A DNA stretch of 64,000 nucleotides from Patescibacteria group bacterium (GTDB lineage Bacteria > Patescibacteriota > Minisyncoccia > Phycocordibacterales > SBAW01): NCBI GenBank assembly GCA_028866155.1, contig JAGWIT010000001.1, positions 165 through 64,164 of the forward strand, written 5' to 3'. Positions within the stretch are counted from its first letter, which is position 1. Every line of letters begins with the position of its first letter. Below are positions 2,926-60,906 of this stretch, piece by piece. The position numbers were made by a program, and so were the translations under genes. Under the pieces are notes generated by a model. The model saw nothing but the letters and a program-made list of their open reading frames with translations. It did no database searches and had not been told where the DNA came from.

Positions 2926-2928
2926 CCG

Positions 2929-10288: not shown

Positions 10289-10289
10289 A

Positions 10290-12137: not shown

Positions 12138-12144
12138 ATCAGAT

Positions 12145-26871: not shown

Positions 26872-33750
<6,879 letters not shown>

Positions 33751-43598: not shown

Positions 43599-46592
43599 AT
43601 GTCTGCGAAGTTCGTACACTTGCATGTCCATTCGCACTACACTCTGCTCGGCGCTCTGCCTAAAATCCCCGACTTGGTGAAGAAAGCGCAGGAGTTCGGA
43701 TGCACGGCGCTCGCTTTGACCGACAAGGACAACCTCTACGGCGCCATCGAATTTTATAAAGAGTGCAAAGCGGCGGGCCTCAAGCCCATTATCGGCCTTG
43801 ACGCGAGCGTCGATGGCAATAAACGACTCCTCTTATATGCGCAAAATCTCGAAGGGTACAAAAATCTGCTCGCGCTGGTGACCAAGTCGCACATGCAGGC
43901 GGACGAAAAGCCGCTGGTGACCAAAGAGATGCTCGCCGAGCACCGTGACGGGCTCATTATGCTCGATCCAGGCACCCGCGAGGCGGCATTAAGCGAAATT
44001 TATTATCTTCGCCCCGACGACCGCCGCGCGTGGGAGACGATGCGGGCTATCGAGCATGGAGCGGCCGGTGACAACGGCGACATCGACGCGGCCGGCGAAA
44101 ACTTCTACTTCCCTTCCGACAAAGAGATGGAGGAGCGCTTCACCCCCAAGCAGTTAGAAAAGACGCTCGCCATCGCCGACGAGTGCAATCTTGAGCTCAC
44201 CATCGGAAAATTCATCTTCCCCGAGTTCCCTTTGCCAAAAGGAGTCGGCGCCGACGAGTATTTGCGCGACCTGTGCATGAAAGGTTTGAAGGCGCGGGGG
44301 TTTGAGGACCGTGCCGACGTTCTCCTGCGCCTCAACTATGAACTCGACATCATTAAGTTTAAAGGATACGCGGCGTACTTTTTGGTCGTCGAGGATCTCA
44401 TCCGCTTCGCACACGAGCACGGCATCTACTCGACCATCCGCGGCTCGGTCGCGGGTTCGATGACCACCTACGTGCTTAATATCACGACCATCGACCCGCT
44501 CGCATACAAAATCCCGTTCGAGCGGTTCCTCAACCCCGAGCGGCCCTCCGCGCCCGACATCGACATGGACTTCGCCGACGACCGGCGCGACGAAGTGATA
44601 GGGTACGCGCGCAAAAAATACGGCGAGGACAAGGTCGCGCAGATAGGCACCTTCGGCACGATGCTTGCGCGCGGCGTCGTCCGCGACGTCGCGCGCGCTT
44701 TGGGCCACCCCTACGGCACCGGCGACCGTATAGCCAAAGAGATCCCCTTCGGCTCGCAGGGCTTCCCGATGACGCTCGAGCGCGCTCTTGAGGAAAATCC
44801 CGAACTGGCAAAAATATATAAAAGCGAAAAGGATGCAAAAGAGATCATCGACCTCGGCAAAAAAATAGAAGGATGCGCGCGGCATATCTCGGTGCACGCC
44901 GCCGGCGTCGTCATCGCTCCGCACCCGCTCATCGAGTATGCGCCGCTCCAGCTCGACCCTAAGGGCGGCAAAATAATCACTCAGTACGACATGTACTCGG
45001 TCGGCGAGGATGGCGTCGGTCTCACCAAGTTCGACTTTTTAGGCATCCGAAACCTCTCCATCCTCGCCTCAGCAGTCGAGCTGGTCAAAACAACGCGCGG
45101 CAAAAATATCGATATCGAGAACATACCCATCGACGACAAAAAAACATACGAGATGCTCACCGTGGGCCATACCGAGGGCACCTTTCAGCTCAACGGCGCG
45201 GGGATGACGCGGTTTCTCAAAGAGCTGAGGCCGACAACGATACATGACATCAACGCGATGGTAGCGCTGTTTCGCCCGGGCCCGATGCAATTCATCCCGC
45301 AGTACATCGAGCGCAAGCACAACCCCGCGCTCATCCGCTACATGGACCCCGCCATGGAGCCTATCCTCAAACAAACCTATGGCATCTTGGTATATCAGGA
45401 CGACTTGCTCATCATGGCACATGACCTTGCCGGCTACAGCTGGGGCGACGTCGACAAGTTCCGCAAGGCGGTCGGCAAAAAGATCCCCGCCGAGATGGAG
45501 GCGCAGAAAGAAAAGTTCATCAAGGGCTGCGTCGAACACTCACAATGGCCGCGCGCCAAAGCCGAGCTAGTGTGGGCGTGGATTGAGCCCTTTGCCGCGT
45601 ATGGGTTCAACAAAGCCCACGCGGCAAGCTATGGCAAAGTCGCCTATCAAACCGCATACCTGAAGGCCAACTTCCCCGTCGAATATATGGCGGCCGTGCT
45701 CACCGCGGAGGCGGGCGATGTCGACACGGTCTCTATCATGGTCGCGGAGTGCAAGCGCATGGGCATCCCCGTCTTGCCGCCCGATGTCAACGAAAGCTTT
45801 GGCGACTTTACCGTATTGCTGGGGCCCGGCGCCGGGCGCAGTAAAAAGGCCGCAGCGCTCGCGGGAGACATTGACCGTGACTCTATCCGCTTCGGCCTCT
45901 ACTCTATTAAGAACTTCGGCCGCGGCATCGCCGATGCCATCATCAGCGAACGCAAAGCGAGCGGCAAATTCAAAACGCTCTCCGACTTTTTGCGGCGCGT
46001 CAAAGATCAAAATTTAAATAAGAAGGCACTCGAGAGTTTAATCGAGTGCGGCGCGCTGGACAGTCTTGGCGAGCGCGGCGCCATGCTCGCCAACATCGAG
46101 CGCCTGCTGGAGTATCACCGCGAAGCGACCAGAGAGCACTCGCAGGACTCGCTCTTTTTGGGTTTGGGCAATGCGGTGAGCGACGTCACTCTCTCGCCCG
46201 CCGCCGAGGCGACGCTGGCCGACCGCTTGAAGTGGGAAAAAGAACTGCTCGGCCTGTATGTTTCGGGACATCCGCTCGATAAGTTCCGCGACAAACTTTT
46301 GAAGCGCCCGATGACGCTCAACGAGGTCAAAATAAAGATCCCGCCCGGCACCACTGCCGTTATCGCCGGTATGATAGAGGATATTCGCACCATCCTCACC
46401 AAAGGCGGCGACCAGATGGCGTTCGTGAAGCTCGCCGACTTCGACGGCTCTATCGAGGCCGTCGTCTTCCCCAAAAACTTCGCCGAATATAAAAATATCC
46501 TAAAGCCCGAGTCCTGCGTCGCCATGAAAGGGCGGCTTTCAAACCGCAACGGTGAGCTGTCGTTGGTTGCTGAACAACTCAAGAGCCTATAA
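43599..46592 (+). CDS. dnaE: DNA polymerase III alpha subunit (DnaE-type, compact ~997 aa)
   Basis: N-terminal PHP domain (VHLHVHSHYTLLGA), the polymerase core, and a C-terminal OB fold. The start is ATG 43599 (MSAKFVHL). Confidence 0.85.
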   Translation: MSAKFVHLHVHSHYTLLGALPKIPDLVKKAQEFGCTALALTDKDNLYGAIEFYKECKAAGLKPIIGLDASVDGNKRLLLYAQNLEGYKNLLALVTKSHMQADEKPLVTKEMLAEHRDGLIMLDPGTREAALSEIYYLRPDDRRAWETMRAIEHGAAGDNGDIDAAGENFYFPSDKEMEERFTPKQLEKTLAIADECNLELTIGKFIFPEFPLPKGVGADEYLRDLCMKGLKARGFEDRADVLLRLNYELDIIKFKGYAAYFLVVEDLIRFAHEHGIYSTIRGSVAGSMTTYVLNITTIDPLAYKIPFERFLNPERPSAPDIDMDFADDRRDEVIGYARKKYGEDKVAQIGTFGTMLARGVVRDVARALGHPYGTGDRIAKEIPFGSQGFPMTLERALEENPELAKIYKSEKDAKEIIDLGKKIEGCARHISVHAAGVVIAPHPLIEYAPLQLDPKGGKIITQYDMYSVGEDGVGLTKFDFLGIRNLSILASAVELVKTTRGKNIDIENIPIDDKKTYEMLTVGHTEGTFQLNGAGMTRFLKELRPTTIHDINAMVALFRPGPMQFIPQYIERKHNPALIRYMDPAMEPILKQTYGILVYQDDLLIMAHDLAGYSWGDVDKFRKAVGKKIPAEMEAQKEKFIKGCVEHSQWPRAKAELVWAWIEPFAAYGFNKAHAASYGKVAYQTAYLKANFPVEYMAAVLTAEAGDVDTVSIMVAECKRMGIPVLPPDVNESFGDFTVLLGPGAGRSKKAAALAGDIDRDSIRFGLYSIKNFGRGIADAIISERKASGKFKTLSDFLRRVKDQNLNKKALESLIECGALDSLGERGAMLANIERLLEYHREATREHSQDSLFLGLGNAVSDVTLSPAAEATLADRLKWEKELLGLYVSGHPLDKFRDKLLKRPMTLNEVKIKIPPGTTAVIAGMIEDIRTILTKGGDQMAFVKLADFDGSIEAVVFPKNFAEYKNILKPESCVAMKGRLSNRNGELSLVAEQLKSL

Positions 46593-46663
46593 TCATTGAC
46601 AATTCATGAGTTTTAAGCTACCATTTCAACTGGACTTATTCACCGTTCAAGGGAGAAAATCAG

Positions 46664-46858
46664 ATGATCTTTGGATCTTGGCAAAAGTGCCGGTGCGGCA
46701 CTCAGTTTAGAACCGAAAGATGTCCGACCTGTTTTCCGAGCACGCGACCTTTGTCGTCGCGGACAGGAAGCGCCAACCCCCCAGCAAGTTCCGAACCGTT
46801 CCCAATAAACAAGGAACGTGGAGAATCCGAAGAAAACTTTTTCAAAAACCAGCAGTGA
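46664..46858 (+). CDS. Small protein (64 aa) with an N-terminal Cys cluster (C-x-C-x8-C-x2-C) and a disordered tail
   Basis: SD GGGAG lies 8 nt upstream of ATG 46664. A candidate promoter TTGACA(46596)-17-TACCAT lies further upstream. A strong terminator follows the stop. Confidence 0.35.
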   Translation: MIFGSWQKCRCGTQFRTERCPTCFPSTRPLSSRTGSANPPASSEPFPINKERGESEENFFKNQQ

Positions 46859-46863
46859 CCCAA

Positions 46864-46907
46864 CGCCTGACTAAACAGCACCCGCTGTCGTCAGGCGATT
46901 TCTTTTG
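46864..46907 (+). terminator. Intrinsic terminator (nested GC-rich hairpin plus ATTTCTTTTG)
   Basis: CGCCTGAC...GTCAGGCG 8-bp outer stem with an inner CAGC-ACCC-GCTG hairpin, followed by a U-rich tract. Confidence 0.55.
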
Positions 46908-46946
46908 CCAAAAAAATAAACCGCGGTAGTATAAGAAACAATCATC

Positions 46947-48173
46947 ATGGAGGAGCGCGACCACAAGAAGCTGGGCCCCGAACTTGAGCTTTTTTATATT
47001 GATCAGACAGTCGGTAAAGGGCTGCCTATGTTTTTACCTAAGGGCGCAACGCTCAAGCGCGAGCTCGAACGGTTTGTGATAGAAGAAGAGCTCAAGCGCG
47101 GCTATCTCCATGTGCATACGCCCGACCTGGCAAAGCTCGAACTATACGAAAAAAGCGGTCACTACCCTCACTACAAAGATTCGATGTACGCGCCTATTGA
47201 AATAGACGACGAGAAGTACATGCTGCGCCCGATGACCTGTCCGCATCATTTTCAGCTTTATCTCTCCAAACCACACAGCTATCGCGAACTTCCCATGCGT
47301 ATCGCAGAGCTCGCGCAACTCTACCGTTATGAGCAATCGGGCGAGCTTATGGGCCTGCAGCGGGTACGCACCTTTTGCCTTGCGGACGCCCATATTATCT
47401 GTGCCGACGAAGAGCAAGCGGCCGACGAGGTAAGCAATGCGCTCGATCTTATCGAACACATGGCCGGCGTCTTTGGTCTCAAGCTAGAAGCAGACTACCG
47501 TTTCCGCCTCTCACTCGGCGACCGCGCCAATACCGAAAAATATTATAAAAATGACGCAGCGTGGGAAAAGAGCGAGGGACTGTTGCGCGAGGTTATGCAA
47601 AAGCGCGGCGAAAAGTTTGAAGAAGCAAAGGATGAAGCCGCATTTTATGGGCCCAAGATTGACGTGCAGATGAAGAATGTTAACGGCAAAGAAGACACGG
47701 CCTTTACCGTTCAATATGACTTTTGCATGCCCGACCGCTTCAATCTCACCTACGTGGGCGAAGACGGCAAAGATCATCGCGCCTTTGTCGTGCATCGCTC
47801 TTCAATAGGCGCCATCGAACGCATCATGGCTTTTCTTATCGAGAAGTATGCGGGCGCGTTCCCTCTTTGGCTCTCGCCAGTGCAGGCGCGCATACTCCCG
47901 ATTGCCGGCACGCATAAAGATTTTGCTCAAAATGTTTTAAGTCAATTCAAACAGGCCGGCATCCGAGCCGAGCTCGACGAGAGCAACGAGACGCTCGGCA
48001 AAAAGATACGCGAGGCCAAAACGCAAAAGATCCCCTATATGCTGGTCATTGGCGACCAAGAAGTGGCCTACAAAACCGCGACACTCGAGAGCCGCGATAA
48101 AGGCAAAATCGGGACGCTTTCAATAGACGAAATCGTTTCAAAGTTGAATGAAGAAATAAAGGCACGGGTATAA
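46947..48173 (+). CDS. thrS: Threonyl-tRNA synthetase, catalytic core plus anticodon-binding domain only (N-terminal TGS/editing domains absent)
   Basis: The protein starts at the ThrRS core motif (RDHKKLG, class II motifs) and runs through the anticodon-binding domain. At 408 aa it is about 230 aa shorter than canonical ThrRS at the N-terminus. Confidence 0.75.
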   Translation: MEERDHKKLGPELELFYIDQTVGKGLPMFLPKGATLKRELERFVIEEELKRGYLHVHTPDLAKLELYEKSGHYPHYKDSMYAPIEIDDEKYMLRPMTCPHHFQLYLSKPHSYRELPMRIAELAQLYRYEQSGELMGLQRVRTFCLADAHIICADEEQAADEVSNALDLIEHMAGVFGLKLEADYRFRLSLGDRANTEKYYKNDAAWEKSEGLLREVMQKRGEKFEEAKDEAAFYGPKIDVQMKNVNGKEDTAFTVQYDFCMPDRFNLTYVGEDGKDHRAFVVHRSSIGAIERIMAFLIEKYAGAFPLWLSPVQARILPIAGTHKDFAQNVLSQFKQAGIRAELDESNETLGKKIREAKTQKIPYMLVIGDQEVAYKTATLESRDKGKIGTLSIDEIVSKLNEEIKARV

Positions 48174-48258
48174 ACAAAAAAATCCCCCAACTGAATATCA
48201 GAAGTGGGATTTTTTTTATAAACGGGGCACTTACATTAGGAATGCATACTTCTTATAT

Positions 48259-49254
48259 TTAAGCCGTTCGGCTTCTAGGGCGGTTTATCTGCGAGAGAAT
48301 AAAATCATCTATCACATCCTCCTGTGTCGATTGAATCGGTGCGCTTACTTGCACCGCAGACGGGTTAAGGATGGCCGCTATCTGTTGGGCGAGCGCGTTA
48401 ATGTCGAGTGCGGCTTGCGAAGGCGAACCTTGCTGGACGCGAACGCCGACGGAGTCTGCGACGGAGGGTGAGCGGGAAGCAAGGTTCGCCGAAGCATTGC
48501 CGAAAAGAAAGTTCTTCATCGCGCGGAAGATGCGATTTTGCACGCGCTTGACGACGATGAGGTAGGCTGCGGCGAGGCACCAGAGGATAAGGAATCCCCA
48601 GTACGCTATCGTGCCCCAAAAGCCGAGGTCAAGACCGGTGTACGGCACCGCCGAGAGCGAGACATACGGAGTGCTGTTGTAAGCAATGGGCTGAGGGCAC
48701 ACCGGATAGCCGATACAGCCGCACGTGTTGCAGACCGGGGTCGGATTATTATAAACGACCGGCGGATTATTGTAGATGACAGGCTGGGGTGCCGGGTTGG
48801 TGACAGTAGTAACCGTCGTCGGCGAGCTCACCGTCGTGTTGCAGCTGTTGATCGCAGTGCACGAGTTGCCGTTGTCGATGACATTGGTGTTGACGTTGGT
48901 ATTTGAAGGAAGGTAAGAAGAACCGAGATATCCGCCGCCCATGAGATATCCGCCGCCGAGATACGAGCTGGTCATGTAGCCTGAGGAGCCCAAGTAATCG
49001 GAGGAGTATGAAGAGGGGTAATAATCCATGGAGCCGTAGTTGGCGGGATAATAATCCATGGAGCCATAGCTGGTTGGATAGTAATCCATGGAGCCATAGT
49101 CGGTGGTAGTGGGATAATAATCCATGGAGCCATAGTTACCGAAATCGTCCGCATGAGCAGGAGCGGCAGCGAAGGCGAGCGGGAGTATCATCAAAATTGC
49201 CGCCATAGAAGCGATACCGAGATTGCGAGACATAATTTTACTAAGCGTATTCAT
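48259..49254 (-). CDS. Surface protein with four YGSMDYYP tandem repeats, a Ser/Thr/Asn-rich region, a Cys-rich segment, a VPYTG motif before a TM helix, and a 94-aa cytoplasmic tail
   Basis: Signal peptide. Repeats at aa 41-80. The stretch AVPYTGLDLGFWGTIAYWGFLILWCLAAAYLIVVKR resembles a sortase sorting signal. SD GGAG and a TTGACA-17-TACAAG promoter lie upstream. Confidence 0.55.
   Translation of the reverse strand: MNTLSKIMSRNLGIASMAAILMILPLAFAAAPAHADDFGNYGSMDYYPTTTDYGSMDYYPTSYGSMDYYPANYGSMDYYPSSYSSDYLGSSGYMTSSYLGGGYLMGGGYLGSSYLPSNTNVNTNVIDNGNSCTAINSCNTTVSSPTTVTTVTNPAPQPVIYNNPPVVYNNPTPVCNTCGCIGYPVCPQPIAYNSTPYVSLSAVPYTGLDLGFWGTIAYWGFLILWCLAAAYLIVVKRVQNRIFRAMKNFLFGNASANLASRSPSVADSVGVRVQQGSPSQAALDINALAQQIAAILNPSAVQVSAPIQSTQEDVIDDFILSQINRPRSRTA
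49015..49134 (-). repeat. Four ~30-bp in-frame tandem repeats encoding YGSMDYYP
   Basis: Repeated CCATGGAGCCATAG(T/C)... units are visible on the plus strand at 49020-49140. Confidence 0.7.
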
Positions 49255-49428
49255 ATATTTTTTTTATTTTCTCCGGCCCTGCTGAGGTCCAGACCAAAGC
49301 CTTGTACCAAAACTTAATAATTGTGTCAATACCCCACGCCCCAGGCTCAATCTTAAAATTAAGCTCAGAGAATGAGGGCTCTCCGAAGAGAGCCCAGAGG
49401 AACATCAAGCGGATATCCCTCCAAAGTG

Positions 49429-50082
49429 TCACCGGCAGTCGGATGCGCAACGGACGCCACCGTTGCCTATCGGCCAGCACTTGTTGGTGCGGACCAGTTG
49501 CCGGGGTGGCAGACACTCGGCTGCCCTGTTCACCCGGACGAGATCATAATCTCGCCCGTGGCTGCGAACTTGGAGCGAACCGGCCGACACGTTATCGAAC
49601 GTGTCGGAACGGGGCGGCACGCCCTTGCCGTATGCCGGAGGCGGACGATAGTATGCCTGCTGTCTGCCTTCAACTGGCGCGGCTGATGGCGCAACTGCCA
49701 CCTTCGGGCAGGTTTCCATCTGCTTTTGGAAACCCTCGGCGGTCATGCCGTCGAGCTTCCTTGCTGCTTCATCCGCCAACTGTGGCGACCAGGAACCCCT
49801 ACAAACGGAGGTGAATTCTCTCCACCTCTGTGACCCCACCGCATATTCTCCCGACTTGGGCTCGGCTGCGGAGCGGGCTTGAGGCGCCGACTGAGCCGCG
49901 AGCTGTTCTTTCAGCTCCTTTATTTGCTGCTCAAGCGCCGCGATTTTTGGGGCGACTCTGGCGTCGACACGCTTGTCGACGCCAGACTGTATCGCATGAC
50001 CCTCTTTAATAGGGTCATGCGTCTGCGCCATAGCCGCCGAAGCGGACATGCCACAAACGAGGAGAGCGGCGAACTTCCACAT
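49429..50082 (-). CDS. Secreted hypothetical protein with coiled-coil segment
   Basis: The start is taken at the internal ATG 50082 (MWKFAALLVCGMSASAAMA signal peptide), preceded by the SD AGAGGA. The island promoter motif lies upstream. Confidence 0.4.
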   Translation of the reverse strand: MWKFAALLVCGMSASAAMAQTHDPIKEGHAIQSGVDKRVDARVAPKIAALEQQIKELKEQLAAQSAPQARSAAEPKSGEYAVGSQRWREFTSVCRGSWSPQLADEAARKLDGMTAEGFQKQMETCPKVAVAPSAAPVEGRQQAYYRPPPAYGKGVPPRSDTFDNVSAGSLQVRSHGRDYDLVRVNRAAECLPPRQLVRTNKCWPIGNGGVRCASDCR

Positions 50083-50312
50083 TGTTTTTATCCTCTGTGT
50101 ATTTGTGAAGACCTGCCCCTTAGTCAGTCCGCCAAGGGGCGGCAAAGGGTTTGTGATTCAATCTTACACTACCTAGGGCATTTTGTCAATACCCTTTCGT
50201 GAAAACCCGATTTTGGCCTTATGCAAAGCCCTAATCGGGAAATAACGAATACGAACAAAAAAAATATGGAGGGCAGGCGATGTTTAGCACATCGCCTGCC
50301 GACCATGGAACC

Positions 50313-51359
50313 CTACTTGTCGCCAGCGATGGCGTCGCGGAGATCTGCATAGTAGGAATCCGGCACGGGGGTGTTGACCTTCTTGTCCACGGCATCGGCT
50401 CTGTCGTTGAGACTGCGGATGTCAGACTTCAGGCCATCAACCGACTGAGTGATGCTATCGACGCTCCCCTTCAACTCTTTCGTCGACTCCTGTATTACCT
50501 CAGCAAGCTTGCTGATGTCATCGGGAGTAACCGAGGGAGTCGTAGTCTCGACTTTTGTCATTTGTTGCTGCTGCTTGCCGTCCTGCGTTTTTGGTGAAAT
50601 GCTGTACCACTGAAGCCCCAGTGCCACAACCAAGATTACACAGGCCACAACAGCAATACGCCCAGAGCCAACCTTGGGACTTTGAATCCGCGGGGCAGCC
50701 GAAGCGCGCCTGCGCGCGCGCCAGCTTTGAAGGCGTTCGCGCATACTTCGAAACAGCCACGAAACGCCGCGGCCGAGCTTGACCGCACCGTTTCGAAAGC
50801 GCTCGAACCAGCTCGGTTTAATGGCAATCTCGTCGGGCTTTTTCGGCCGAATCGTCCCGATATCCTCCATTTTCAACTTTTGGATTTCATCCTTGACCGA
50901 ACGCATTTCGGCAATTACGCCTTTAAATTGGTCGGCCAACAAGATAAGCACCCCGTTGAGATGTTTGTTCTCGTCGGAAAAAAGCGCCGCAATCCGCACA
51001 TCGAGCTTGCGGAAAAGTTGTTCGTGAAGTTCTTCTTCGTACTTGAGGATGTCCTTCCAATGCGTGGTTGGATCCTCCAGATAGATCTTGAGCGCGTCAA
51101 TGATGCTGGCGAGCCTTTCGACTTCACCTCTGAGTTCACTGATCGTCTTTTCGACCCTCTGAGTTTGGGCCTGTCGCTCATAAATCTCGACCTGGTTTAT
51201 AGCCTTAGAGATGTCAGCCTTGATCTCGGGGACGTGGTTTTTAAATGGCGACTCGGCGTATGGGCCTTTCGGCTCGCCCGCTTTATTCACCTGCCGCCAC
51301 GAACCATTTTTATCTTGCGCGACGCGCTGACCATGGGCGTTGATATGAATCTTAGCCAT
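50313..51359 (-). CDS. Coiled-coil membrane protein (single mid-protein TM helix), hypothetical
   Basis: N-terminal ~230 aa are coiled-coil-rich, then a TM helix (RIAVVACVILVVALGL), then a ~100-aa C-terminal domain. SD AAGGAAG. Confidence 0.4.
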   Translation of the reverse strand: MAKIHINAHGQRVAQDKNGSWRQVNKAGEPKGPYAESPFKNHVPEIKADISKAINQVEIYERQAQTQRVEKTISELRGEVERLASIIDALKIYLEDPTTHWKDILKYEEELHEQLFRKLDVRIAALFSDENKHLNGVLILLADQFKGVIAEMRSVKDEIQKLKMEDIGTIRPKKPDEIAIKPSWFERFRNGAVKLGRGVSWLFRSMRERLQSWRARRRASAAPRIQSPKVGSGRIAVVACVILVVALGLQWYSISPKTQDGKQQQQMTKVETTTPSVTPDDISKLAEVIQESTKELKGSVDSITQSVDGLKSDIRSLNDRADAVDKKVNTPVPDSYYADLRDAIAGDK

Positions 51360-51510
51360 TTTGCTTCCTTTCTATCCCGCAATGCGGGAGTTGTGATGAA
51401 CTTCATCCGGCGATTAACCTGCCCCCACCGGTGTTGGGGGTTCCTCTAAACCACAAGTGGTTTACAGGAACATATGCGACCACCTACAAAATAGATGAGC
51501 GAATATGAAC

Positions 51511-51563
51511 CAATAAAGAATTAAAAAGAAATTCCTGCGAGGCGCCGAGCTTTGGCGCCTCGC
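51511..51563 (-). terminator. Intrinsic terminator for the 51571-52125 gene
   Basis: GCGAGGCGCC-GAGCTTT-GGCGCCTCGC perfect 10-bp stem at 51537-51563. AGGAATTTCTTTTTAATTC follows on the minus strand. Confidence 0.55.
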
Positions 51564-51570
51564 GAGAAAG

Positions 51571-52125
51571 TTAGTGACCTTTGATGGGAAGATCGCCCCA
51601 ACGTGCCCCGAAGCTCACGCCTGTCTTAACGATAACCGTTTGGTTGAGTGCTCCCTCGGTGAACTGCTCTTGCTCGGTCGGCCAACGTTGTGCCTCCGGC
51701 CACTCAAGCGCTTTGAGAGCTAGTTGTGGATCGGGCCAGGCAGTATGTTTGGGCGCTTCTTTCTTTGTCTCCTCTTTTGGGGGCATTGGCAAAGCCGCCG
51801 TCTGTTTTACCGCTTGAGGAGGCTGAGTCTTTTGCATTTGCTGCGACTTTTCTGCAGCCTCGTTGACCGCCACACAGTGCTCGGCCACGCCCGAAATCAC
51901 ATGGTCGAGCGTTCCCCAAGAACTCGCAAGGAATGCGTAGATGAGAGAGTCGGGATACTGTTTGTCTGGCTGGCAGCGGTGTATGGCTGCATACCGTTTG
52001 CCATACGCAAACGACCAGTCATGTTTTTGCTGGATGGTCAACGTCTCCCAGGTCTGTTGATCCATCGCCGACGCAGTTGCCGCCGCCGCAAAAAACAGTA
52101 GTACAACAAGCATGAGATTTTTCAT
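51571..52125 (-). CDS. Secreted hypothetical protein
   Basis: The start is taken at the internal ATG (MKNLMLVVLLFFAAAATASA signal peptide). The upstream 57 codons of the listed ORF are a probable artefact. Confidence 0.4.
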   Translation of the reverse strand: MKNLMLVVLLFFAAAATASAMDQQTWETLTIQQKHDWSFAYGKRYAAIHRCQPDKQYPDSLIYAFLASSWGTLDHVISGVAEHCVAVNEAAEKSQQMQKTQPPQAVKQTAALPMPPKEETKKEAPKHTAWPDPQLALKALEWPEAQRWPTEQEQFTEGALNQTVIVKTGVSFGARWGDLPIKGH

Positions 52126-52214
52126 CTCGTACTCCTCCTTTCTGCTTCCTGTGTTGTGAAGAACTACCTCTTTTTGCAGAGGCATAGCCGCGCGCCCCTC
52201 GAAGTAAATAGGAT

Positions 52215-52856
52215 TTACCTCGGGACGAGCGAGTATGCCCCTACAAAGTCGGCTGAGACGACGAACCGGTTGGTCTTGTCGGCGAACGAGTCGCACGTCG
52301 AGAGCACGAGGTGTCTGCCATCCGTCGGAAGTTCTACCACATCCTCGGTGGCATCGGCAACCCTCACGCCAACGACGCTGTAGCGATACTCGGTGGTGTC
52401 CGAGTAAACGCTCACGATGTCGCCGGTCTTGAGATTCTGGATGCCGTCGAAGGTTTTGTAGTACTGGTGATAGACAATAGGCAGGTAGGACGAATGGCCG
52501 AAGAGATACACCGTGCCGTCAACGCCAAGAAGCGATGAAGTCGGGTAGCGCACCGCTCCCTGCGTGAGCGCATCGTCCAAAATGCCGGCATCGGTCGACA
52601 CCGGATTTTGTACCGCGACATCCAGACCGATCGACTTGGCAACCACGCGGACAGGGTTCTCGGGTTGGTCGGCTGCGGCAGGCGTGTTGGTGGTTTGCGG
52701 CGCGTTCGCCGAGTCCGTAGAGTTAAGCGGGTTTGGAGTTGCACCCACCGCCGCCAGAAACGCGGATGTGCCGACGAACATGAGTAAAAACACCGCCGCA
52801 AAGGCAAACGGGTGTTCAGAAATGTGGAAGATGGCTCCTTGGCCGGGGCGCTCCAT
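52215..52856 (-). CDS. Sortase-family transpeptidase (membrane-anchored)
   Basis: N-terminal TM anchor. The His region is LFGHSS. The catalytic TLxTC-type motif is HLVLSTCDSF. A conserved Arg is present (NRFVVSADFVG). Confidence 0.7.
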   Translation of the reverse strand: MERPGQGAIFHISEHPFAFAAVFLLMFVGTSAFLAAVGATPNPLNSTDSANAPQTTNTPAAADQPENPVRVVAKSIGLDVAVQNPVSTDAGILDDALTQGAVRYPTSSLLGVDGTVYLFGHSSYLPIVYHQYYKTFDGIQNLKTGDIVSVYSDTTEYRYSVVGVRVADATEDVVELPTDGRHLVLSTCDSFADKTNRFVVSADFVGAYSLVPR

Positions 52857-52944
52857 AGCGGTGAATAGCCTACACTATTTAACCATATTTGTCAATGCCC
52901 TCTACTAGGCAATAATTGCGAGAACTTGACAAGCAAACGGCGCT

Positions 52945-54030
52945 ATGGTAGCTTTGCGCCGTATGGAAACACAAGAGAAGCCCTCCGTGTGGGACATATT
53001 TCTCCGGACTATTGCGGTCTTGGGGCTCATCGCCGTCTTATTGCTCGGCGCATGGGGCATTATCCAACTTGCAGTCTCGCTCCCCTCTGTTTTCGGCGGC
53101 ATCGGCAACAGCGTTTCGTCGCTCTTCAGCGGCGGCGCTCACAAAGAGACGCTCGCGGTCTCGGCGCCTTCGAGCGCCGCCTCAAGCCAGCAGATTACCG
53201 TGTCATGGACGCACCAAAACGGCAACGGTGATTATGCATACTCTCTCTCTTACGCCTGCCAAAACGGACTCTCGCTTAAGGCGCCCCTCCCCACCGGCAG
53301 CTACCAAACTATCGCCTGCAACACGCCGTTTAATTTCGTGAATGCAAGCGCACACATGATTGTCATCCCGGTGGCGAGCGTCTCGCAACCTGTCCCGCTC
53401 ACGCTCACCGTTACGGCAACACAGCTCTCGACCGGAGCAATCACTACGACCGGTTCGGCGACGACCAACATCACCGGCACCGCGACGCAGCCGAAGACCA
53501 GCGCCTACACCTCGCCCGCTCCGACCATGTCATACCAGCCGGCTCCGGTGCGCGCGACGCTCTACGGCTACCCCGACCTCGCGGTCCGCTATGTCGGCGT
53601 CGTGCCGCAAGGCGGTCTCACCGCGCTTCAGTTTAGCGTCGAGAACAACGGCACCAACGTGACGCCCGCGGGCTGGACATTTAACGCACAGCTGCCGGTT
53701 AACGGCGGATACACGTTCGTGAGCCAGCCGCAGCAGGCGCTCTATCCGGGCGACAAGATCCTCTACACATTGAGCTTCCAAACGCCGAGCCAATATCAAA
53801 CCGGCTATCCGTACGGGTACACCTCAAACGGATATGGCTATACGGGACAAGGCAGCTATGCCTGCAGCGGCTATATCCCCTGCATACCGCCGACGCAGTA
53901 CGGATATCCGTATCAAAATTATGGATACGGCTACACCGGCAGCGTAACGATAATGGTTGACCCGTACAACTACATCCCAGAGCTCAACAAAATAAACAAC
54001 CGACTCACGGTCCCCCTCTCGGTGTACTAA
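52945..54030 (+). CDS. Membrane-anchored surface protein with a Thr-rich region and a C-terminal CARDB-like domain
   Basis: N-terminal TM helix, TGTATQ/TTTG low complexity, and a C-terminal GSVTIMVDPYNYIPELNKINN motif resembling CARDB domains. Confidence 0.4.
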   Translation: MVALRRMETQEKPSVWDIFLRTIAVLGLIAVLLLGAWGIIQLAVSLPSVFGGIGNSVSSLFSGGAHKETLAVSAPSSAASSQQITVSWTHQNGNGDYAYSLSYACQNGLSLKAPLPTGSYQTIACNTPFNFVNASAHMIVIPVASVSQPVPLTLTVTATQLSTGAITTTGSATTNITGTATQPKTSAYTSPAPTMSYQPAPVRATLYGYPDLAVRYVGVVPQGGLTALQFSVENNGTNVTPAGWTFNAQLPVNGGYTFVSQPQQALYPGDKILYTLSFQTPSQYQTGYPYGYTSNGYGYTGQGSYACSGYIPCIPPTQYGYPYQNYGYGYTGSVTIMVDPYNYIPELNKINNRLTVPLSVY

Positions 54031-54068
54031 TCGAAACTTATATCCTCTGCTTATATTTAAACTTGGAC

Positions 54069-56177
54069 TTAGATGTCCAAGTTTGCGAGCTTGGCGTTGC
54101 CTTGGATAAAGCTTTTGCGCGAGGAGACGTCCTCGCCCATGAGTATGTCAAAGACGCGATCGGCGTCGGCGGCATCGTCGATGTTGACCTGCTTTAAGAC
54201 GCGGCGCGCCGGGTCCATGGTTGTCTCCCACAGCTCCTCGGGGTTCATTTCGCCCAAGCCTTTGTAGCGCTGGATGGAGATTTTAGGTGATTTTTTAGCA
54301 GTCGTTTCTTCTTCTGTTTCCTCATCGCCCTCACCCTCCACAGTTTCAGCGCCGGAGGGGCCTTCTATCGGCTCGACTTCCTGCACTTTGTCGGCGTCTT
54401 TGCCCAAGAGCACGTTTTTCTCCGCGTCCGAGTAGACATAATGTATTTCTTTGCCGCGCTTAATTTTGTAGAGCGGCGGTTGGGCGATATAGACAAAGCC
54501 ACCTTCGATGACCGGCTTGAAGTGGCGGAAGAAGAGCGTGAGCAGGAGCGTGCGGATGTGCGCGCCGTCGACGTCGGCGTCGGTCGCGATGATTATTTTG
54601 TGATAGCGGAGCTTTGAAATATCAAAAATGTCGCCGATGGCTGTGCCAAGCGCGAGTATCAGATGCTTGATTTCTTGCGAAGCGAGCATTTTGTCGAGGC
54701 GCGCACGCTCGACATTGAGGATTTTGCCGCGAAGCGGGAGGATAGCCTGCGTCCTGCGGTCGCGGCCCTGCTTGCTTGAGCCGCCGGCCGAGTCTCCCTC
54801 GACTATGAACAGCTCCGACTCGCTCGCCTCTTTGCTCTGGCAGTCGGCAAGCTTGCCTGGCAGGCCAAAGCCCTCCAAAGCACCCTTGCGTAGGACCGAA
54901 TCTTTGGCGGCTTTGGCGGCTTTGCGCGCTTTGAGCGCGAGGATGGATTTGGAGATGATGGCGCGCGCGTCTTCGGGATTTTCCTCCAAAAACATATTGA
55001 ACGCTTCGCTAAAGACTGTCGCGACCGCGCTCTGCGCCTCGACCGAGCCCAGCTTGCTTTTGGTCTGGCCCTCGAACTGTATTTCGCGCAGTTTTACCGA
55101 GACGACGGCGGTCAAACCCTCGAGCACGTCGTCGCCGGTGAAGTTCTCCTCGGATTCTTTGAGCACATTTGCTTTGCGCGCGTAAGCATTGAGCGTGCGC
55201 GTGAGCGAGGTGCGGAAGCCCGTGATATGCGTGCCGCCTTCGCTGTTGTAGATGTTGTTGGCAAAGGGGAACACGCGCGACGAAATGTCATCGACATATT
55301 GGAGCGCTATTTCGACATCCACGCCGTCCTGCTCCTTCTCTATATAAAAGATATTTTTGTGGATCGGCTTTTGGTAGCGGTTATAAAACGAGATGAGCGA
55401 GCGCAGGCCGCCTTCGAAGTAAAAGGTCTGCGAAGGCGAGTTGCTCAGATAGCCGCGGATATAAAGCTCTTTGCCAACCTCGGTGAATTTTATGCCCGAC
55501 TCGCGCGCGTCGATGATGGTGATGCGCAAGCCTTTGACCAAATAGGCCTGCTCGCGCAGATGTGCCACGACCTTGTCGAAGTCGTACTCTATTTTGTTGA
55601 AGATACCCGGATCGGCCGAGTAGGTGATGACGGTGCCGTGGAGCTTCGAGCTCCCCACTTTTTTGACCGCTGATTTCTTTTTGCCGAGCGCATATTCCTG
55701 CACATAGGCGCCGCCGTCGCGATGCACCTCGGCGCGCAGCCAGCTTGAGAGCGCGTTGACGACCGAAACGCCCACACCGTGGAGGCCTCCCGATACTTTG
55801 TAGCCCTCGCCGCCGAACTTGCCGCCGGCGTGGAGCGTCGTCATCACCGTCTCGAGCGCCGAGACTTTGGTCTGCTTGTGGATGTCTACCGGGATGCCGC
55901 GGCCGTTGTCGGCAACGCGGATAAGTGCTCCTTGCCCTGAGGGATTCGAAGGGTCTGGCAGGAGCACGACTTCGATGTCGTTGGCAAAGCCGCCCATCGC
56001 CTCGTCGCGCGAATTGTCGAAGACCTCCCAGATGAGGTGGTGGAGGCCGTCAGGGCCGGTCGTGCCGATGTACATGCCGGGCCGGCGGCGCACGGCCTCG
56101 AGTCCTTCAAGGACGGTGATGGCCGATGCGTCATAACTGCCTTTTTTTTCTTTATTTTTTAGATCTTTTTCTGCCAC
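54069..56177 (-). CDS. gyrB: DNA gyrase subunit B
   Basis: GHKL ATPase N-terminus (GLHHLIWEVFDNSRDEA), a TOPRIM domain, and a GyrB-type C-terminal tail (LMGEDVSSRKSFIQGNAKLANLDI). Confidence 0.8.
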   Translation of the reverse strand: MAEKDLKNKEKKGSYDASAITVLEGLEAVRRRPGMYIGTTGPDGLHHLIWEVFDNSRDEAMGGFANDIEVVLLPDPSNPSGQGALIRVADNGRGIPVDIHKQTKVSALETVMTTLHAGGKFGGEGYKVSGGLHGVGVSVVNALSSWLRAEVHRDGGAYVQEYALGKKKSAVKKVGSSKLHGTVITYSADPGIFNKIEYDFDKVVAHLREQAYLVKGLRITIIDARESGIKFTEVGKELYIRGYLSNSPSQTFYFEGGLRSLISFYNRYQKPIHKNIFYIEKEQDGVDVEIALQYVDDISSRVFPFANNIYNSEGGTHITGFRTSLTRTLNAYARKANVLKESEENFTGDDVLEGLTAVVSVKLREIQFEGQTKSKLGSVEAQSAVATVFSEAFNMFLEENPEDARAIISKSILALKARKAAKAAKDSVLRKGALEGFGLPGKLADCQSKEASESELFIVEGDSAGGSSKQGRDRRTQAILPLRGKILNVERARLDKMLASQEIKHLILALGTAIGDIFDISKLRYHKIIIATDADVDGAHIRTLLLTLFFRHFKPVIEGGFVYIAQPPLYKIKRGKEIHYVYSDAEKNVLLGKDADKVQEVEPIEGPSGAETVEGEGDEETEEETTAKKSPKISIQRYKGLGEMNPEELWETTMDPARRVLKQVNIDDAADADRVFDILMGEDVSSRKSFIQGNAKLANLDI

Positions 56178-56306
56178 AAAAGTAAAAATCCTCAGGGCAG
56201 GATTTGCCTTTTATTCTATCAGAAATAGAAAGGTTTGGGAAGCTCGCGAGTGGATAAAAAGTATTGCAAAATAAGGATAAAATAGTGCTTTGCGGCCGGG
56301 TGCTTT

Positions 56307-58145
56307 TTACCTGATTTCGAAGCCCTTTTCTTTGAGCGCGGCGGAGATTTTGTCCATAATCGCGTTCACTTCAATTTCGGTGAGCGTGCGGTCGAAGGAT
56401 TGAAAGATGAGGCGGTATGCAACCGACATCCTCCCCTCTTTTTCAAATTTATCAAAATATGTTCCTCCAGATATAAATATTCGAAGCCCAAGTGACTGCG
56501 GCCCAGTAAGCACATCAGTAATTATTGAACCAACACCGTGTTCGTCATAACCTTCTGGCTTCCATAAAGCAATATCACGTACGATATACGGATATTTTGA
56601 GAACGGTTGGTAACGCGTTGCTTGGGAGAGCGGGAGCTCGTCGTAGTATGACCGCTGGTCAAGCGGCTTTTGATAGGAGCTCAGCGGGATTTCTTTTGCC
56701 TCTTCTTTTTCGCCGACGGTGCCGACCATTATCTCTTCTTTGCCGCCCTGCCATACGGCACCTATCTCGAACAGTTTTATTTCCGGCAGATTCAGCAGAT
56801 ATTTATTGGGGATGTTTTTTTGGAGCGCTTCTTTGAGATTCTCGACGAGCGTTGAGCGCAGGTAGGGCTTGGTGCCGTCGACCTTGTTGAGCACGATGCG
56901 CTCGCCTTTGTCAGCAAAAACCGACGTATACACCTCGCTGTACCCTTGCGTCATCAAATCCTCACGGACCTTTTCGCTCCAATAAAAAGCCGGGTTGAGC
57001 TCGGGCTCCATGTCGGCAGGCGGCAATTCTTTGGCGGGAATTTTGTCATATCCGATGATGCGCGCCGCTTCTTCTATAAGATCCTCTTCTATCAAAAGAT
57101 CGAGCCGCTGGAACGGGATCTCAACGGTGACCGTGTCGTCCTGCTTTTGATACTTAAAACCCAGCCGCTCGAACGCGCGGATGATATCGCTCTGTGCGAT
57201 TGAGCTGCCGAGCAGGCGCCGCGCATGCGCGATTGAGAGCGCCACGGCGGAGGGCTTTTGCGGGATATTATACTTATCGACAAAACCTATCAGCTCCCCG
57301 TCGGCGAGTTTTTGTATCAGCTCGGCCACAGCCTGCATGCCAAAGCCCGCCAACTCGGGCGAGAGACCTTGCTCGAAGCGAGCGCTCGCGTCGGTGCGCA
57401 GCTTCAGCGCCTGTGCGGAACGGCGCACCGCAGAGCCGTCAAAATTGGCCGACTCAATGATGATGTCTTTGGTGGTCTCATCAATTGCGGCCGGCATACC
57501 TCCCTTGACTCCCGCTATGCCGACCGGCGCGCCCCCGGCGGTAATAACAGGCATGGAGTCTTTGAGCACGTAGCTTTTCTTGTCGAGCGCCACCACCACC
57601 ACCTCGCCGTCTTTGGCCGCGCGCACGCCGATATCGAGGCTGCCGAGCTTGCCCGCGTCGAACGCATGCAGCGGCTGGCCCAGGTTGAACATCACAAAGT
57701 TGGTCGCATCAACAATGTTATTAATTGAACGCTGACCCACTGCCGTCAGTCTGTCCTGCAGCCACTGCGGCGAAGGCTCGACTTTTACATTTTTAATGTA
57801 GCCGGCAATGTAACGCGGGCACAATTCTGCAGTCTCTATCGAAACAGACACCACATCGGTTTTTGGCAGCAGCGCGGGCTTTTGGGCAAGCGGGTCATGC
57901 GCGAGCGGGATATTGAGTATCGCCGAAAGCTCTCCCGCGACCCCGCGGTGCGAGAGCGCATCGTGCCCGCGGTTGGGGGTTATTTTGACATCAAGCACTT
58001 GATCTTCTATGTTAGACCCACGAGGTCGAACAGTTTCGATACCCTCAATTTCGAATGCATGGAACGTGAGCGCTTCGGCAAGAGCCTCAGCATTTGGCAA
58101 CGCTGTGTCGAAAAATTTAGTGAGCCAGAGGCGCGAGACTTTCAT
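56307..58145 (-). CDS. pheT: Phenylalanyl-tRNA synthetase beta subunit (compact, 612 aa)
   Basis: MKVSRLWLTKFFD N-terminus, a B3/B4 domain, and the class II-like core. It is co-oriented with pheS, adjacent with a 1-nt gap. Confidence 0.8.
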   Translation of the reverse strand: MKVSRLWLTKFFDTALPNAEALAEALTFHAFEIEGIETVRPRGSNIEDQVLDVKITPNRGHDALSHRGVAGELSAILNIPLAHDPLAQKPALLPKTDVVSVSIETAELCPRYIAGYIKNVKVEPSPQWLQDRLTAVGQRSINNIVDATNFVMFNLGQPLHAFDAGKLGSLDIGVRAAKDGEVVVVALDKKSYVLKDSMPVITAGGAPVGIAGVKGGMPAAIDETTKDIIIESANFDGSAVRRSAQALKLRTDASARFEQGLSPELAGFGMQAVAELIQKLADGELIGFVDKYNIPQKPSAVALSIAHARRLLGSSIAQSDIIRAFERLGFKYQKQDDTVTVEIPFQRLDLLIEEDLIEEAARIIGYDKIPAKELPPADMEPELNPAFYWSEKVREDLMTQGYSEVYTSVFADKGERIVLNKVDGTKPYLRSTLVENLKEALQKNIPNKYLLNLPEIKLFEIGAVWQGGKEEIMVGTVGEKEEAKEIPLSSYQKPLDQRSYYDELPLSQATRYQPFSKYPYIVRDIALWKPEGYDEHGVGSIITDVLTGPQSLGLRIFISGGTYFDKFEKEGRMSVAYRLIFQSFDRTLTEIEVNAIMDKISAALKEKGFEIR

Positions 58146-58959: not shown

Positions 58960-60195
58960 ATGGACATCTGGGCTCTGGGCATTTATGCGTCCCTCTTTTT
59001 GAGCCTTTATTTTGAGGTATTTTTGTTCATTTCTTTCTTTGAAAGAAGGCCTTACAAGAAGACACTCTTGAAGCCGCACCGCTACCCCACCGTATCAATG
59101 CTTGTGCCGTGCTTTAACGAAGAGCGAACTCTCGCGCAGACGGTCGACTCTTTGCTCGCGCTCGACTATCCGCAAGAAAAACTCGAGGTCGTCATCGTCG
59201 ATGACGGGTCAACCGACCGGACGCGCGCCATCGGCGAGGAGCTTGCGCGTAAAAATCCGCGGATAACTTTCATCCACAAAGAGAACGGCGGCAAATACAC
59301 GGCGCTCAACCTCGGGATAGAGCGCTCGACGGCGGAGTTGGTCGGATGCCTCGACGCCGACTCGTTCGTAGCACCGGACGCTCTTATCGAGGTGGTGAAG
59401 AGCCTTGAGGCCGACCCCGCCATTATGGCTGTCACGCCCGCGATGAAGGTCTATCGCCCGCGCACGATTTTAGAGGCTATGCAGGCGGTCGAATACACCT
59501 TTGGTATTTTTTATAAAAAAATGTTCGATAATCTGGCCGCGCTCAATGTTTTGCCGGGGCCGTTCTCAATCTACCGCCGCGATGTGTTTAAAAAAATAGG
59601 CCTCTTCCGCCATGCGCACAACACCGAGGACATGGAGATAGCGTTTCGCATGCATGCCAACGGGCTCAAAATAGTCAATGCGCATACGGCGTTCGTCTAC
59701 ACCACGGTGCCCAAAACAGTGCGCGGGCTTATCAAACAGCGCACGCGCTGGTCGCAGGGCTTTTTGCAGAACTCGCGCGACTACAAATATATGTACTTCA
59801 ACCCTCGCTACGGCAACTTCGGGATGCTGGTCCTGCCGCTCGGGCTCTCGGCGTTCGTGGGCGGGATATACACGGCCGGTTATACGCTCTACCGGAGCGC
59901 CAGCTTTGCCTGGATGCGCGTGAGCGACTTGTGGGCGACCGGCATCCCGCCGCACCTGCCGGTCGCGGCAAACTTTACGTGGTACTACATCAACACTAGC
60001 ATGATGGTGTTCCTTATCGTGGCGGTGTTTTGCATGACGATTGCCTCGATAGCGCTCGGACATCGGATAGCCCAGACCGAGCTTAGGGCCAGGTCGTTCG
60101 TATATTATTTTGCGTTGTTCGGATTTATAGCGCCCGTGTGGCTCGCGCGCGCCGCGGTGGGCGCGATGCTCTCGCGGGACGCCTCGTGGCGCTAG
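58960..60195 (+). CDS. Processive family-2 glycosyltransferase (membrane-embedded, QxxRW motif)
   Basis: DDGSTD and DAD(S) motifs, and QRTRWSQG (QxxRW) typical of cellulose/chitin/PNAG-synthase-like processive GT2. N- and C-terminal TM helices. Confidence 0.7.
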   Translation: MDIWALGIYASLFLSLYFEVFLFISFFERRPYKKTLLKPHRYPTVSMLVPCFNEERTLAQTVDSLLALDYPQEKLEVVIVDDGSTDRTRAIGEELARKNPRITFIHKENGGKYTALNLGIERSTAELVGCLDADSFVAPDALIEVVKSLEADPAIMAVTPAMKVYRPRTILEAMQAVEYTFGIFYKKMFDNLAALNVLPGPFSIYRRDVFKKIGLFRHAHNTEDMEIAFRMHANGLKIVNAHTAFVYTTVPKTVRGLIKQRTRWSQGFLQNSRDYKYMYFNPRYGNFGMLVLPLGLSAFVGGIYTAGYTLYRSASFAWMRVSDLWATGIPPHLPVAANFTWYYINTSMMVFLIVAVFCMTIASIALGHRIAQTELRARSFVYYFALFGFIAPVWLARAAVGAMLSRDASWR

Positions 60196-60895: not shown

Positions 60896-60906
60896 CAAAA
60901 AATCGG

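Follow-up and report, generated by a model that had tools for sequence, protein, structure and literature searches.

In a 64-kb window of a Patescibacteria genome (Candidate Phyla Radiation, CPR; Paceibacteria group), which is the part of that genome analyzed here, six genes, referred to below as g1 to g6, lie between thrS and gyrB. They make up an old, vertically inherited surface-protein locus set amid housekeeping genes. The reading we prefer, to which we give a probability of roughly 70%, is that of a dedicated sortase system rather than a pilus, with a housekeeping-type sortase (g5), a single dedicated substrate (g1), and a tandem immunoglobulin (Ig)-like membrane protein (g6). This reading rests on the gene content, the invariance of a pentapeptide motif, the catalytic triad and fold of the sortase, the co-inheritance of the three genes, their vertical descent, and differences in evolutionary rate across the locus, all of which are documented below.

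CPR bacteria are thought to live attached to other cells, and to our knowledge little is known of their envelope proteins apart from type IV pili and the Pam pili, which were described recently. Our full-text literature search found no cognate substrate, motif, or partner named for a CPR sortase. What was already known is that the sortase of this locus is annotated as such and that sortases are common in CPR genomes (PMC6744442); new are the family of [VI]PYTG substrates, whose tail is non-canonical, the Ig-like membrane protein inherited with them, and the gradient of evolutionary rates along the locus.

The PYTG protein, the sortase, and the Ig-like membrane protein

All six open reading frames (ORFs) that the original prediction had placed between thrS and gyrB are present, with the features and in the order described there, and its view of a cell-surface locus in which a sortase is surrounded by secreted and membrane proteins matching no characterized system is supported. 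The products of g1 to g4 matched nothing in Pfam, NCBIfam, or PHROGs except coiled-coil noise. That description missed the key feature of the locus: the repeat protein g1 carries a sorting motif, VPYTG, that is invariant. In addition to these family searches, PDB sequences were searched, which for g1 to g4 and g6 again gave nothing beyond coiled-coil noise with g3; AlphaFold2 (AF2) models were examined and compared using Foldseek, and repeats were located with Tandem Repeats Finder (TRF). The window proteins were mapped onto a sample of 80 species-level loci of related species centered on thrS (designated by L-numbers), from which hidden Markov models (HMMs) were built. Fifty of these loci contain the complete thrS-gyrB interval and form the basis of the presence and absence counts. 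A metagenome scan with the conserved g1 patterns yielded 79 further loci.

In g1, the VPYTG pentapeptide is followed by LDLG, a 24-residue helix, and KR, which together with the N-terminal signal peptide reproduces the layout of an LPXTG-type sorting signal. The pentapeptide [VI]PYTG is invariant in 59/59 g1 homologues, within the context Y[VI][ST]L[ST]x[VI]PYTG[LF][DE]xG (mean column identity 0.91), and throughout the 59 proteins the helix comes directly after the motif and usually ends in K/R. When the six frames of the window were examined for the more permissive pattern [LIVAFMT]P.T[GASN] followed by a hydrophobic segment, the g1 motif was the sole site. Among the relatives, 33/33 such sites in the bounded loci fall inside the thrS-gyrB interval, which comprises about 15% of the bases, and none falls in the flanks. 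Candidate peptides carrying the g1 motif for the sortase g5 are YVSLSAVPYTGLDLG and SLSAVPYTGLDLG.

A profile of the g1 module matched 846 cluster representatives among 1.84 billion proteins. An exhaustive profile search was needed to reveal this family, as a word-indexed homologue search with the g1 C-terminus returned just 7 proteins. All names supplied by the sources for the retrieved homologues read "hypothetical," and a literature search for IPYTG or VPYTG gave unrelated matches only.

The ectodomains of the g1 family are hypervariable and are made up to a large extent of Thr (14%), Ser (11%), Gly (11%), Tyr (8.6%), and Pro (8.5%). Lysine accounts for 1.3% of residues, versus 7.5% in housekeeping proteins, and is entirely lacking from the ectodomain of the window g1 and of 32/59 homologues. 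The repeat region is hypervariable between species as well; where the window has YGSMDYYP repeats, the nearest relative has five copies of SSYDYSYPTT, and the locus designated L008 has YPDTYSN repeats. Several relatives carry two to three tandem PYTG paralogues beside thrS, with two copies each in L008, L010, L012, L018, L019, and L032. With its PYTG paralogues, the locus exceeds the 10-kb flank in L022 (11279-17040) and L065 (11466-16732).

The g5 protein matched the Pfam Sortase family PF04203 at 63.6 bits against a cutoff of 26.6 (E 2e-17; residues 77-203). No variation was seen at H121, C188 (within LVLSTC), or R197 among 41 orthologues from the locus and 34 database homologues. The AF2 model is confident (predicted local distance difference test score, pLDDT, of 87) and shows the sortase beta-barrel, with a fold that resembles the housekeeping classes A and E more than class C. 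The closest PDB sequence was 2kw8, an "LPXTG-site transpeptidase family protein" (3e-8). The protein fell below every NCBIfam class cutoff, scoring 32.9 versus 140 for SrtD, 32.1 versus 165 for class D, 28.6 versus 160 for class E, 26.3 versus 158 for class GN, 18.3 versus 160 for class C, and 29.4 versus 39.35 for the generic model TIGR01076. Inspection of the linker (residues 39-66) did not reveal the class C lid motif DP[FWY]. The transmembrane (TM) helix of g5 itself is less conserved than the catalytic domain (0.59 versus 0.79). On these sequence and model features, g5 is best described as an unclassified housekeeping-type sortase and predicted transpeptidase.

The third conserved protein, g6, had been called CARDB-like, a resemblance that is weak in its own sequence. 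In the AF2 model (pLDDT 77), a long membrane helix at the N-terminus is accompanied by two beta-sandwich domains, with a disordered Tyr/Gly-rich insert in the second, and several homologues carry a precomputed match to CARDB (PF07705). The match of g6 itself reached only 17.1 bits against a cutoff of 22.7, with only residues 334-355 aligned. Foldseek comparison of the model with the PDB gave generic tandem-Ig matches only, with TM-scores <0.3. We found 381 homologues at E <= 0.001, and again every given name was "hypothetical." P268-G269-D270 is invariant, and at least 90% of the sequences keep K271. Conservation in g6 is highest in its TM helix, with a mean column identity of 0.79 versus 0.63-0.66 for the domains and nine invariant residues at positions 27-40; such constraint on an anchor helix points to specific intramembrane contacts.

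The three proteins are inherited together. Examination of the 50 bounded loci with the locus HMMs revealed the PYTG protein, the sortase, and g6 in 33, and none of the three in the other 17, where the distance between thrS and gyrB is 1-2,667 bp. In the metagenome loci with enough room, the sortase and g6 were found in 17/17, so that the co-occurrence of g6 with the sortase and the PYTG protein is perfect in both samples. The gene for g1 adjoins thrS in 40/42 metagenome loci with room for both, and all 79 show the same thrS/gyrB synteny. The order dnaE-thrS-[g1 … sortase, g6]-gyrB-pheT is widespread, the layout being found in >100 related Paceibacteria loci. When mapped onto a thrS tree, the locus turns up in all members of the window's clade for which presence could be determined and in the majority of the wider group (thrS 72-87% identical), and the 17 empty, more distant species fall into two to three coherent clades. 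The fixed synteny and the clade-wise absences argue for vertical inheritance with clade-level loss, or for one old gain, and not for a recent island.

Table 1. Features of the thrS-gyrB locus, with positions in the 64-kb window
Feature	Position	Strand	Description
g1	48259-49254	-	331 aa; N-terminal signal peptide, ectodomain, VPYTG, TM at about aa 212-235, cytoplasmic tail (ORF and translation)
YGSMDYYP tandem repeats, 4 copies	49015-49136	-	TRF period 30 x 3.8; in g1 ectodomain
VPYTG pentapeptide	48634-48648	-	g1 aa 203-207; predicted sortase cleavage between T and G
Conserved TM helix of g1	48550-48621	-	FWGTIAYWGFLILWCLAAAYLIVV, then KR; from alignment of 59 homologues (YW…AYL conserved) and hydropathy
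Cytoplasmic tail of g1	48262-48549	-	aa 236-331 (96 aa); juxtamembrane KRVQN…FLFG; C-terminal ED.ID.F[IV].SQINR
g2	49429-50082	-	Secreted; signal peptide MWKFAALLVCGMSASAAMA, then QT; start set at MWKF (50082)
g3	50313-51359	-	348 aa, bitopic; N-terminal cytoplasmic coiled coil, TM at about aa 227-250, C-terminal external coiled coil
g4	51571-52125	-	Secreted; signal peptide MKNLMLVVLLFFAAAATASA, then MD; start set at MKNL (52125)
g5 (sortase)	52215-52856	-	213 aa; TM aa 15-38, catalytic domain aa 67-213; H121, C188 (LSTC), R197
Sortase-g6 intergenic region	52857-52962	.	Divergent; promoter-like TTGTCA-16-AATAAT on + strand at 52889-52916
g6	52945/52963-54030	+	Type II membrane protein; TM aa 15-44 and two beta-sandwich domains; NCBI start 52963

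Predicted sorting of g1 and alternative readings

In a dedicated sortase system of this kind, the signal peptide would export g1, and the conserved helix would hold the protein in the membrane. The sortase residue C188 would then attack the T-G bond of [VI]PYTG just outside the membrane, and the enzyme would pass the Tyr/Ser/Thr/Gly-rich, Lys-poor ectodomain to an amine acceptor, most likely a peptidoglycan precursor. The ectodomain would thereby be covalently displayed on the surface, and the helix and conserved cytoplasmic tail would remain behind. The probable role of g6 is that of an adaptor or stabilizer working in the membrane together with the sortase, the sorting signal, or both. The intervening genes g2 to g4 encode secreted or bitopic envelope proteins that keep their position and evolve too fast to be recognized beyond the closest relatives.

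Several observations weigh against this course of events. Classical sorting signals end a few basic residues past the helix. In the window g1, 124 residues follow the predicted cleavage site (38-296 in the family, median 103, helix and tail together), so that the signal is neither at the extreme C-terminus nor followed by a short charged tail; moreover, the TM helix and tails of the family are conserved. The NCBIfam LPXTG-anchor models gave no g1 match at E <= 0.1. The motif census spans 64 kb of genome, and further substrates may be encoded elsewhere. Within the locus, the genes for the sortase and g1 are 3 kb apart, one at each end. Both genes were found in one syntenic context only, that between thrS and gyrB, so that shared ancestry and infrequent rearrangement, instead of selected proximity, could explain part of their linkage. 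Finally, peptidoglycan synthesis genes were not seen within the window.

Three subfamilies can be distinguished among the g1 tails, and in each of them the extreme C-terminus is conserved. The subfamily of the window's clade ends in …ED.ID.F[IV].SQINR, the second in …DSM…APRIVI.R, and the third has a domain of 243-296 residues ending in …AIDSSYSTGVTGAKLALTRALA.LGA. Per-member Pfam scans and a PDB profile search with the long tail domain of distant homologues gave nothing meaningful; BMC-domain matches (E >= 0.03) and one weak DNA_pol3_gamma3 match in the long tails were discarded.

As to the wall, the window encodes a 260-residue protein with a PG_binding_1 domain (448-1230, minus strand), which suggests that the organism has a cell wall with peptidoglycan, and we regard this as probably present. 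Beside this gene are two mutually overlapping ORFs lacking Pfam matches, one of 451 codons (1570-2925, minus strand) and one of 891 codons (2398-5073, plus strand).

Several of these same features would be expected if g1 were never cleaved and served as a stable bitopic receptor or scaffold, with the sortase acting on substrates encoded elsewhere, which the 64-kb extent of the census would accommodate. The PYTG-LDLG segment, the TM helix, and the tail would then form one module, which might pair with the g6 helix, itself the most conserved segment of that protein, and bind a cytoplasmic partner. The long tail, conserved within subfamilies down to its C-terminal motifs, fits this reading, as do the lack of a match to the LPXTG-anchor HMMs and the conservation of the helix and of both sides of the pentapeptide, which extends far past the usual needs of sortase recognition. 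Extended signal conservation is, however, generally seen in dedicated one-substrate systems such as SrtB/IsdC and the class GN pairs, and we count this against an uncleaved g1. The exact [LIV]PxTG consensus also stands at the canonical position before a TM helix and K/R in 59/59 proteins, the protein was never found apart from the sortase where the contig permits the check (33/33 and 17/17), and the two were lost jointly in 17/17 loci. We consider an uncleaved g1 unlikely.

The conserved tail could also be accommodated by a dedicated system in which cleavage has two jobs, namely attachment of the hypervariable ectodomain to the wall and release of a membrane-anchored cytoplasmic fragment that acts inside the cell, with the g6 helix as an intramembrane adaptor presenting the signal to the sortase. 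The fragment, consisting of the helix and about 95-270 further residues, may for example report surface assembly or recruit a partner. This version is speculative, and we would not bet on it; if true, it would represent a sortase-coupled transmembrane signaling or assembly device specific to a large CPR lineage, which may underlie host or partner recognition.

A different fate for g1 is that the sortase links the threonine of PYT to an amine of g6, such as K271 within the near-invariant PGDK, yielding a two-protein membrane-anchored fibril that would amount to a minimal heterodimeric "pilus." The constant co-inheritance of g6, its divergent transcription from the sortase, its pilin-like combination of an N-terminal anchor with two Ig-like domains, and the conservation of PGDK are all in keeping with such an adduct, and the Lys-free g1 ectodomain would block self-polymerization. 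By our own reading, however, PGDK lies in the CARDB-like domain and could be a structural motif of that fold, and neither Pfam nor Foldseek gave matches to pilin motifs or isopeptide domains. Such a pair is linked by no solved structure or family. The proposal is purely inferential, and we hold it to be very improbable.

Descent, composition, and surroundings of the locus

The nearest relative retrieved (L081/L082) has the same six-gene layout as the window. Global alignment of its proteins with those of the window gave identities of 84% for thrS, 83% for the sortase, 77% for g6, and 63% for g1, in which the C-terminal module is almost identical and the repeats have been replaced. The middle genes gave 39% for g2 (z=11), 36% for g4 (z=9.4), and 32% for g3 (z=19). 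The g4 orthologue in L082, with its 36% over the aligned residues, is undetectable by BLASTP, and g2 has a weak match also in L004. The middle genes are thus positional orthologues whose evolution is several times faster than that of their neighbors, which is why they look like orphans. When species are compared by BLAST, nearly every gene between g1 and the sortase is a singleton, and 45/75 such ORFs start with a hydrophobic segment. The steep gradient in identity, from 84% in the flanking core gene to about 35% in the middle genes, indicates that the locus is likely an interface with hosts, phages, or the environment.

The design of g3, a cytoplasmic coiled coil with one TM helix, recurs in the variable middle of the locus in relatives. 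The g3 N-terminus (MAKIHINAHGQRVAQDKNGSWRQVN, window 51290-51359) shares the motif MA..…N..GQ.V.QD.NG.WR with bitopic proteins of two relatives (L008, 15108-16034; L020, 10536-11060) that are otherwise unalignable to g3. Matches of g3 to IcmG/DotF (25 bits versus a cutoff of 200) and to LysB were discarded as generic coiled-coil noise. The nearest relative has an extra gene between g6 and gyrB, encoding a 158-residue multi-pass membrane protein with a weak EamA match (L081, 11555-12031; L082, 9098-9574), which is absent from the window. The L081 contig has dnaE broken up into several short gene calls, and its gyrB and pheT products fall short of the window's in length; frameshifts or assembly errors are the probable cause.

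The original prediction took the six genes for an accessory island of lower GC content, distinct in composition from its flanks, possibly acquired horizontally and possibly encoding an attachment or pilus-like apparatus. Composition was assessed by GC content, GC skew, tetranucleotide distance, GC content at third codon positions (GC3), and a codon-bias score, with percentiles taken against all 5.8-kb windows. The GC content of the locus is 0.549, versus 0.554 in the rest of the window, and lies at the 45th percentile (standard deviation 0.014). Per-gene GC content is 0.53-0.61 (core genes 0.47-0.59) and GC3 is 0.58-0.74 (core 0.50-0.76), values that we judged to be inside the core ranges. The claims of lower GC content and of distinct composition are therefore not upheld. 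A foreign origin would be in keeping with the tetranucleotide distance of the interval, which is mildly raised (93rd percentile of same-size windows), and with the codon-bias scores of g2 to g4, which at -0.05 to 0.02 occupy the low end of the core range. Both mild deviations could come from the extreme low-complexity, Lys/Glu-poor amino acid make-up of the proteins. Taken together, the composition measures, GC skew among them, do not favor a foreign origin.

A foreign island might also be suspected from the Shine-Dalgarno (SD) sequences of g2 to g4, which some core genes lack, from the absence of the locus in 17/50 related species, and from the want of detectable homologues of g2 to g4 beyond the closest relatives. 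Against this, the absences form two to three clades on the thrS tree and are not patchy, position and order are identical in >100 related loci, and the nearest relative holds positional orthologues of all six genes. There is no tRNA near the locus, the sole one in the window being at 60905; none of the six genes gave a Pfam match to an integrase or transposase, and a scan of viral contigs with g3 gave no match. Uniform composition on quantitative analysis and conserved presence in relatives, the two outcomes by which the prediction had proposed to be judged wrong, are essentially what we observed. Nor does the locus look like that of a pilus, since the one motif-bearing substrate in the window has a Lys-free ectodomain, the sortase is nearer to class A/E than to class C, and nothing pilin-like was found. 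A compositionally foreign, horizontally acquired island is in our estimation scarcely credible, and we reserve next to nothing for readings outside those considered here. As a point of method, unrecognizable low-complexity surface genes can look foreign by eye and yet be ancient and vertically inherited.

The genes of the locus had further been said to use classic SD sequences and their own promoters and terminators, in contrast to leaderless core genes. SD-like sequences do precede g2 (GAGGA), g3 (AAGGAAG), and g4 (a strong AGGAGG), where the spacers are 174-230 bp. Upstream of g1 there is only a weak, distant GGAG, and the sortase and g6 have none, so that the contrast with leaderless core genes is only partly true. 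Sites resembling promoters precede g2 and g6, and a terminator-like hairpin follows g2, all of them consensus matches only. Terminator-like hairpins number 25 in window 46500-56500, compared to 11.6 +/- 3.7 in shuffled sequence (about twofold), the majority of them inside genes. Judging from the promoter-like site listed in Table 1, the region between the sortase and g6 is probably a promoter region shared by the two.

The surrounding genes encode core machinery: before the locus are a fused rpoB-rpoC, trmD, RNase R, SMC, RNase III, nusB, RNase HII, dnaE, and thrS, and after it gyrB, pheT, and pheS, with thrS and gyrB as the direct flanks. The window ThrRS is 72-87% identical to proteins of metagenome-assembled genomes labeled Kaiserbacteria, Adlerbacteria, Paceibacterota, and similar, and both g6 and the sortase show 100% identity to NCBI proteins from a metagenome-assembled genome labeled "Patescibacteria group bacterium." At only 408 residues (46947-48173, plus strand), ThrRS comprises the class II core and the anticodon-binding domain; the TGS and editing domains of the N-terminus are missing. 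In each of the 80 related loci, the match spans about the same ~400 query residues. RNA polymerase beta and beta' are fused in one ORF of 2,292 codons (26872-33750, minus strand), with Rpb2 domains at residues 19-1047 and Rpb1 domains at 1066-2170. A 305-codon ORF (41286-42203, minus strand) joins NusB (residues 7-136) to a NUDIX hydrolase domain (residues 170-282).

A cluster with large glycosyltransferase genes (5035-12389, minus strand) encodes a 741-residue protein with two GT4/GT1 modules and a 699-residue GT2+GT4 fusion, together with a polysaccharide deacetylase and a DUF2206 membrane protein, and an additional GT2 gene lies beyond pheS (58960-60195, plus strand). These glycosyltransferases might glycosylate Ser/Thr-rich surface proteins such as g1.

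Comparison with known sortase and pilus systems

Both the Pam pili and the class C sortase pili are appendages of Ig-like proteins, in CPR and Gram-positive bacteria, respectively, and g6 shares Ig-like domains with them. The marks of class C systems, namely a pilin-motif lysine, a class C lid, and several pilins, are missing from the locus. Pam pili are reported from CPR bacteria, mainly from Saccharimonadia and Microgenomatia, and are assembled by donor-strand exchange with chaperone-usher-like factors and no sortase (bioRxiv 10.64898/2026.03.03.709456). A relation of the locus to Pam pili was rejected.

A further comparison is with the housekeeping sortases of class A (Firmicutes) and class E (Actinobacteria). 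Like them, g5 belongs to the membrane-anchored C60 transpeptidase family, with a His-Cys-Arg triad and a TLxTC-like motif, and like their substrates g1 has a signal peptide, [LIV]PxTG, a hydrophobic helix, and basic residues. The differences are that g5 falls under all curated class thresholds, that its substrates are apparently one to three proteins encoded in the same locus and not many scattered ones, and that g1 has a conserved helix and long conserved tail in place of the short charged tail of LPXTG/LAXTG signals.

A conserved membrane protein that accompanies a housekeeping sortase has a precedent in SafA of Actinobacteria, a small protein which in Actinomyces oris binds the housekeeping sortase and protects it from signal peptidase (PMC9282373). 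As g6 is likewise a membrane protein genetically linked to a housekeeping sortase throughout a lineage, it may play an analogous partner role. The two proteins are not related in sequence, however. At 355-361 aa, g6 is far larger than SafA and carries two Ig-like domains on the extracellular side, and its conserved element is the TM helix, whereas that of SafA is the exoplasmic FPW motif.

Dedicated pairs of sortase and target include SrtB-IsdC, class D sortases with LPNTA targets, and the class GN "marine" sortase with a single vWA-type target. As in these pairs, the sortase gene described here is accompanied by a single candidate target that bears its own variant motif, and gain or loss affects both together. 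The present pair differs in its [VI]PYTG motif, in having a low-complexity Tyr/Ser/Thr/Gly-rich target with a cytoplasmic tail, in the third conserved partner g6, in the hypervariable genes between sortase and target, and in its setting among core replication and translation genes.

The most interesting point is the remnant that would be retained in the membrane after the predicted cleavage of g1. In Streptococcus gordonii, as summarized in PMC11326707, the C-terminal remnant of a cleaved sorting signal stays in the membrane and is sensed by a histidine kinase. By analogy with this C-peptide, the conserved g1 remnant could function after cleavage. The S. gordonii remnant is a short classical one, whereas that of g1 would consist of the helix and about 95-270 cytoplasmic residues with conserved motifs; the locus itself encodes no kinase or other sensor. 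For a large lineage of Paceibacteria, the locus thus offers a concrete candidate sortase-substrate pair, a motif, [VI]PYTG, usable for finding surface proteins in these genomes, a sorting signal that departs from the canonical form in its conserved cytoplasmic tail, and a conserved membrane partner.

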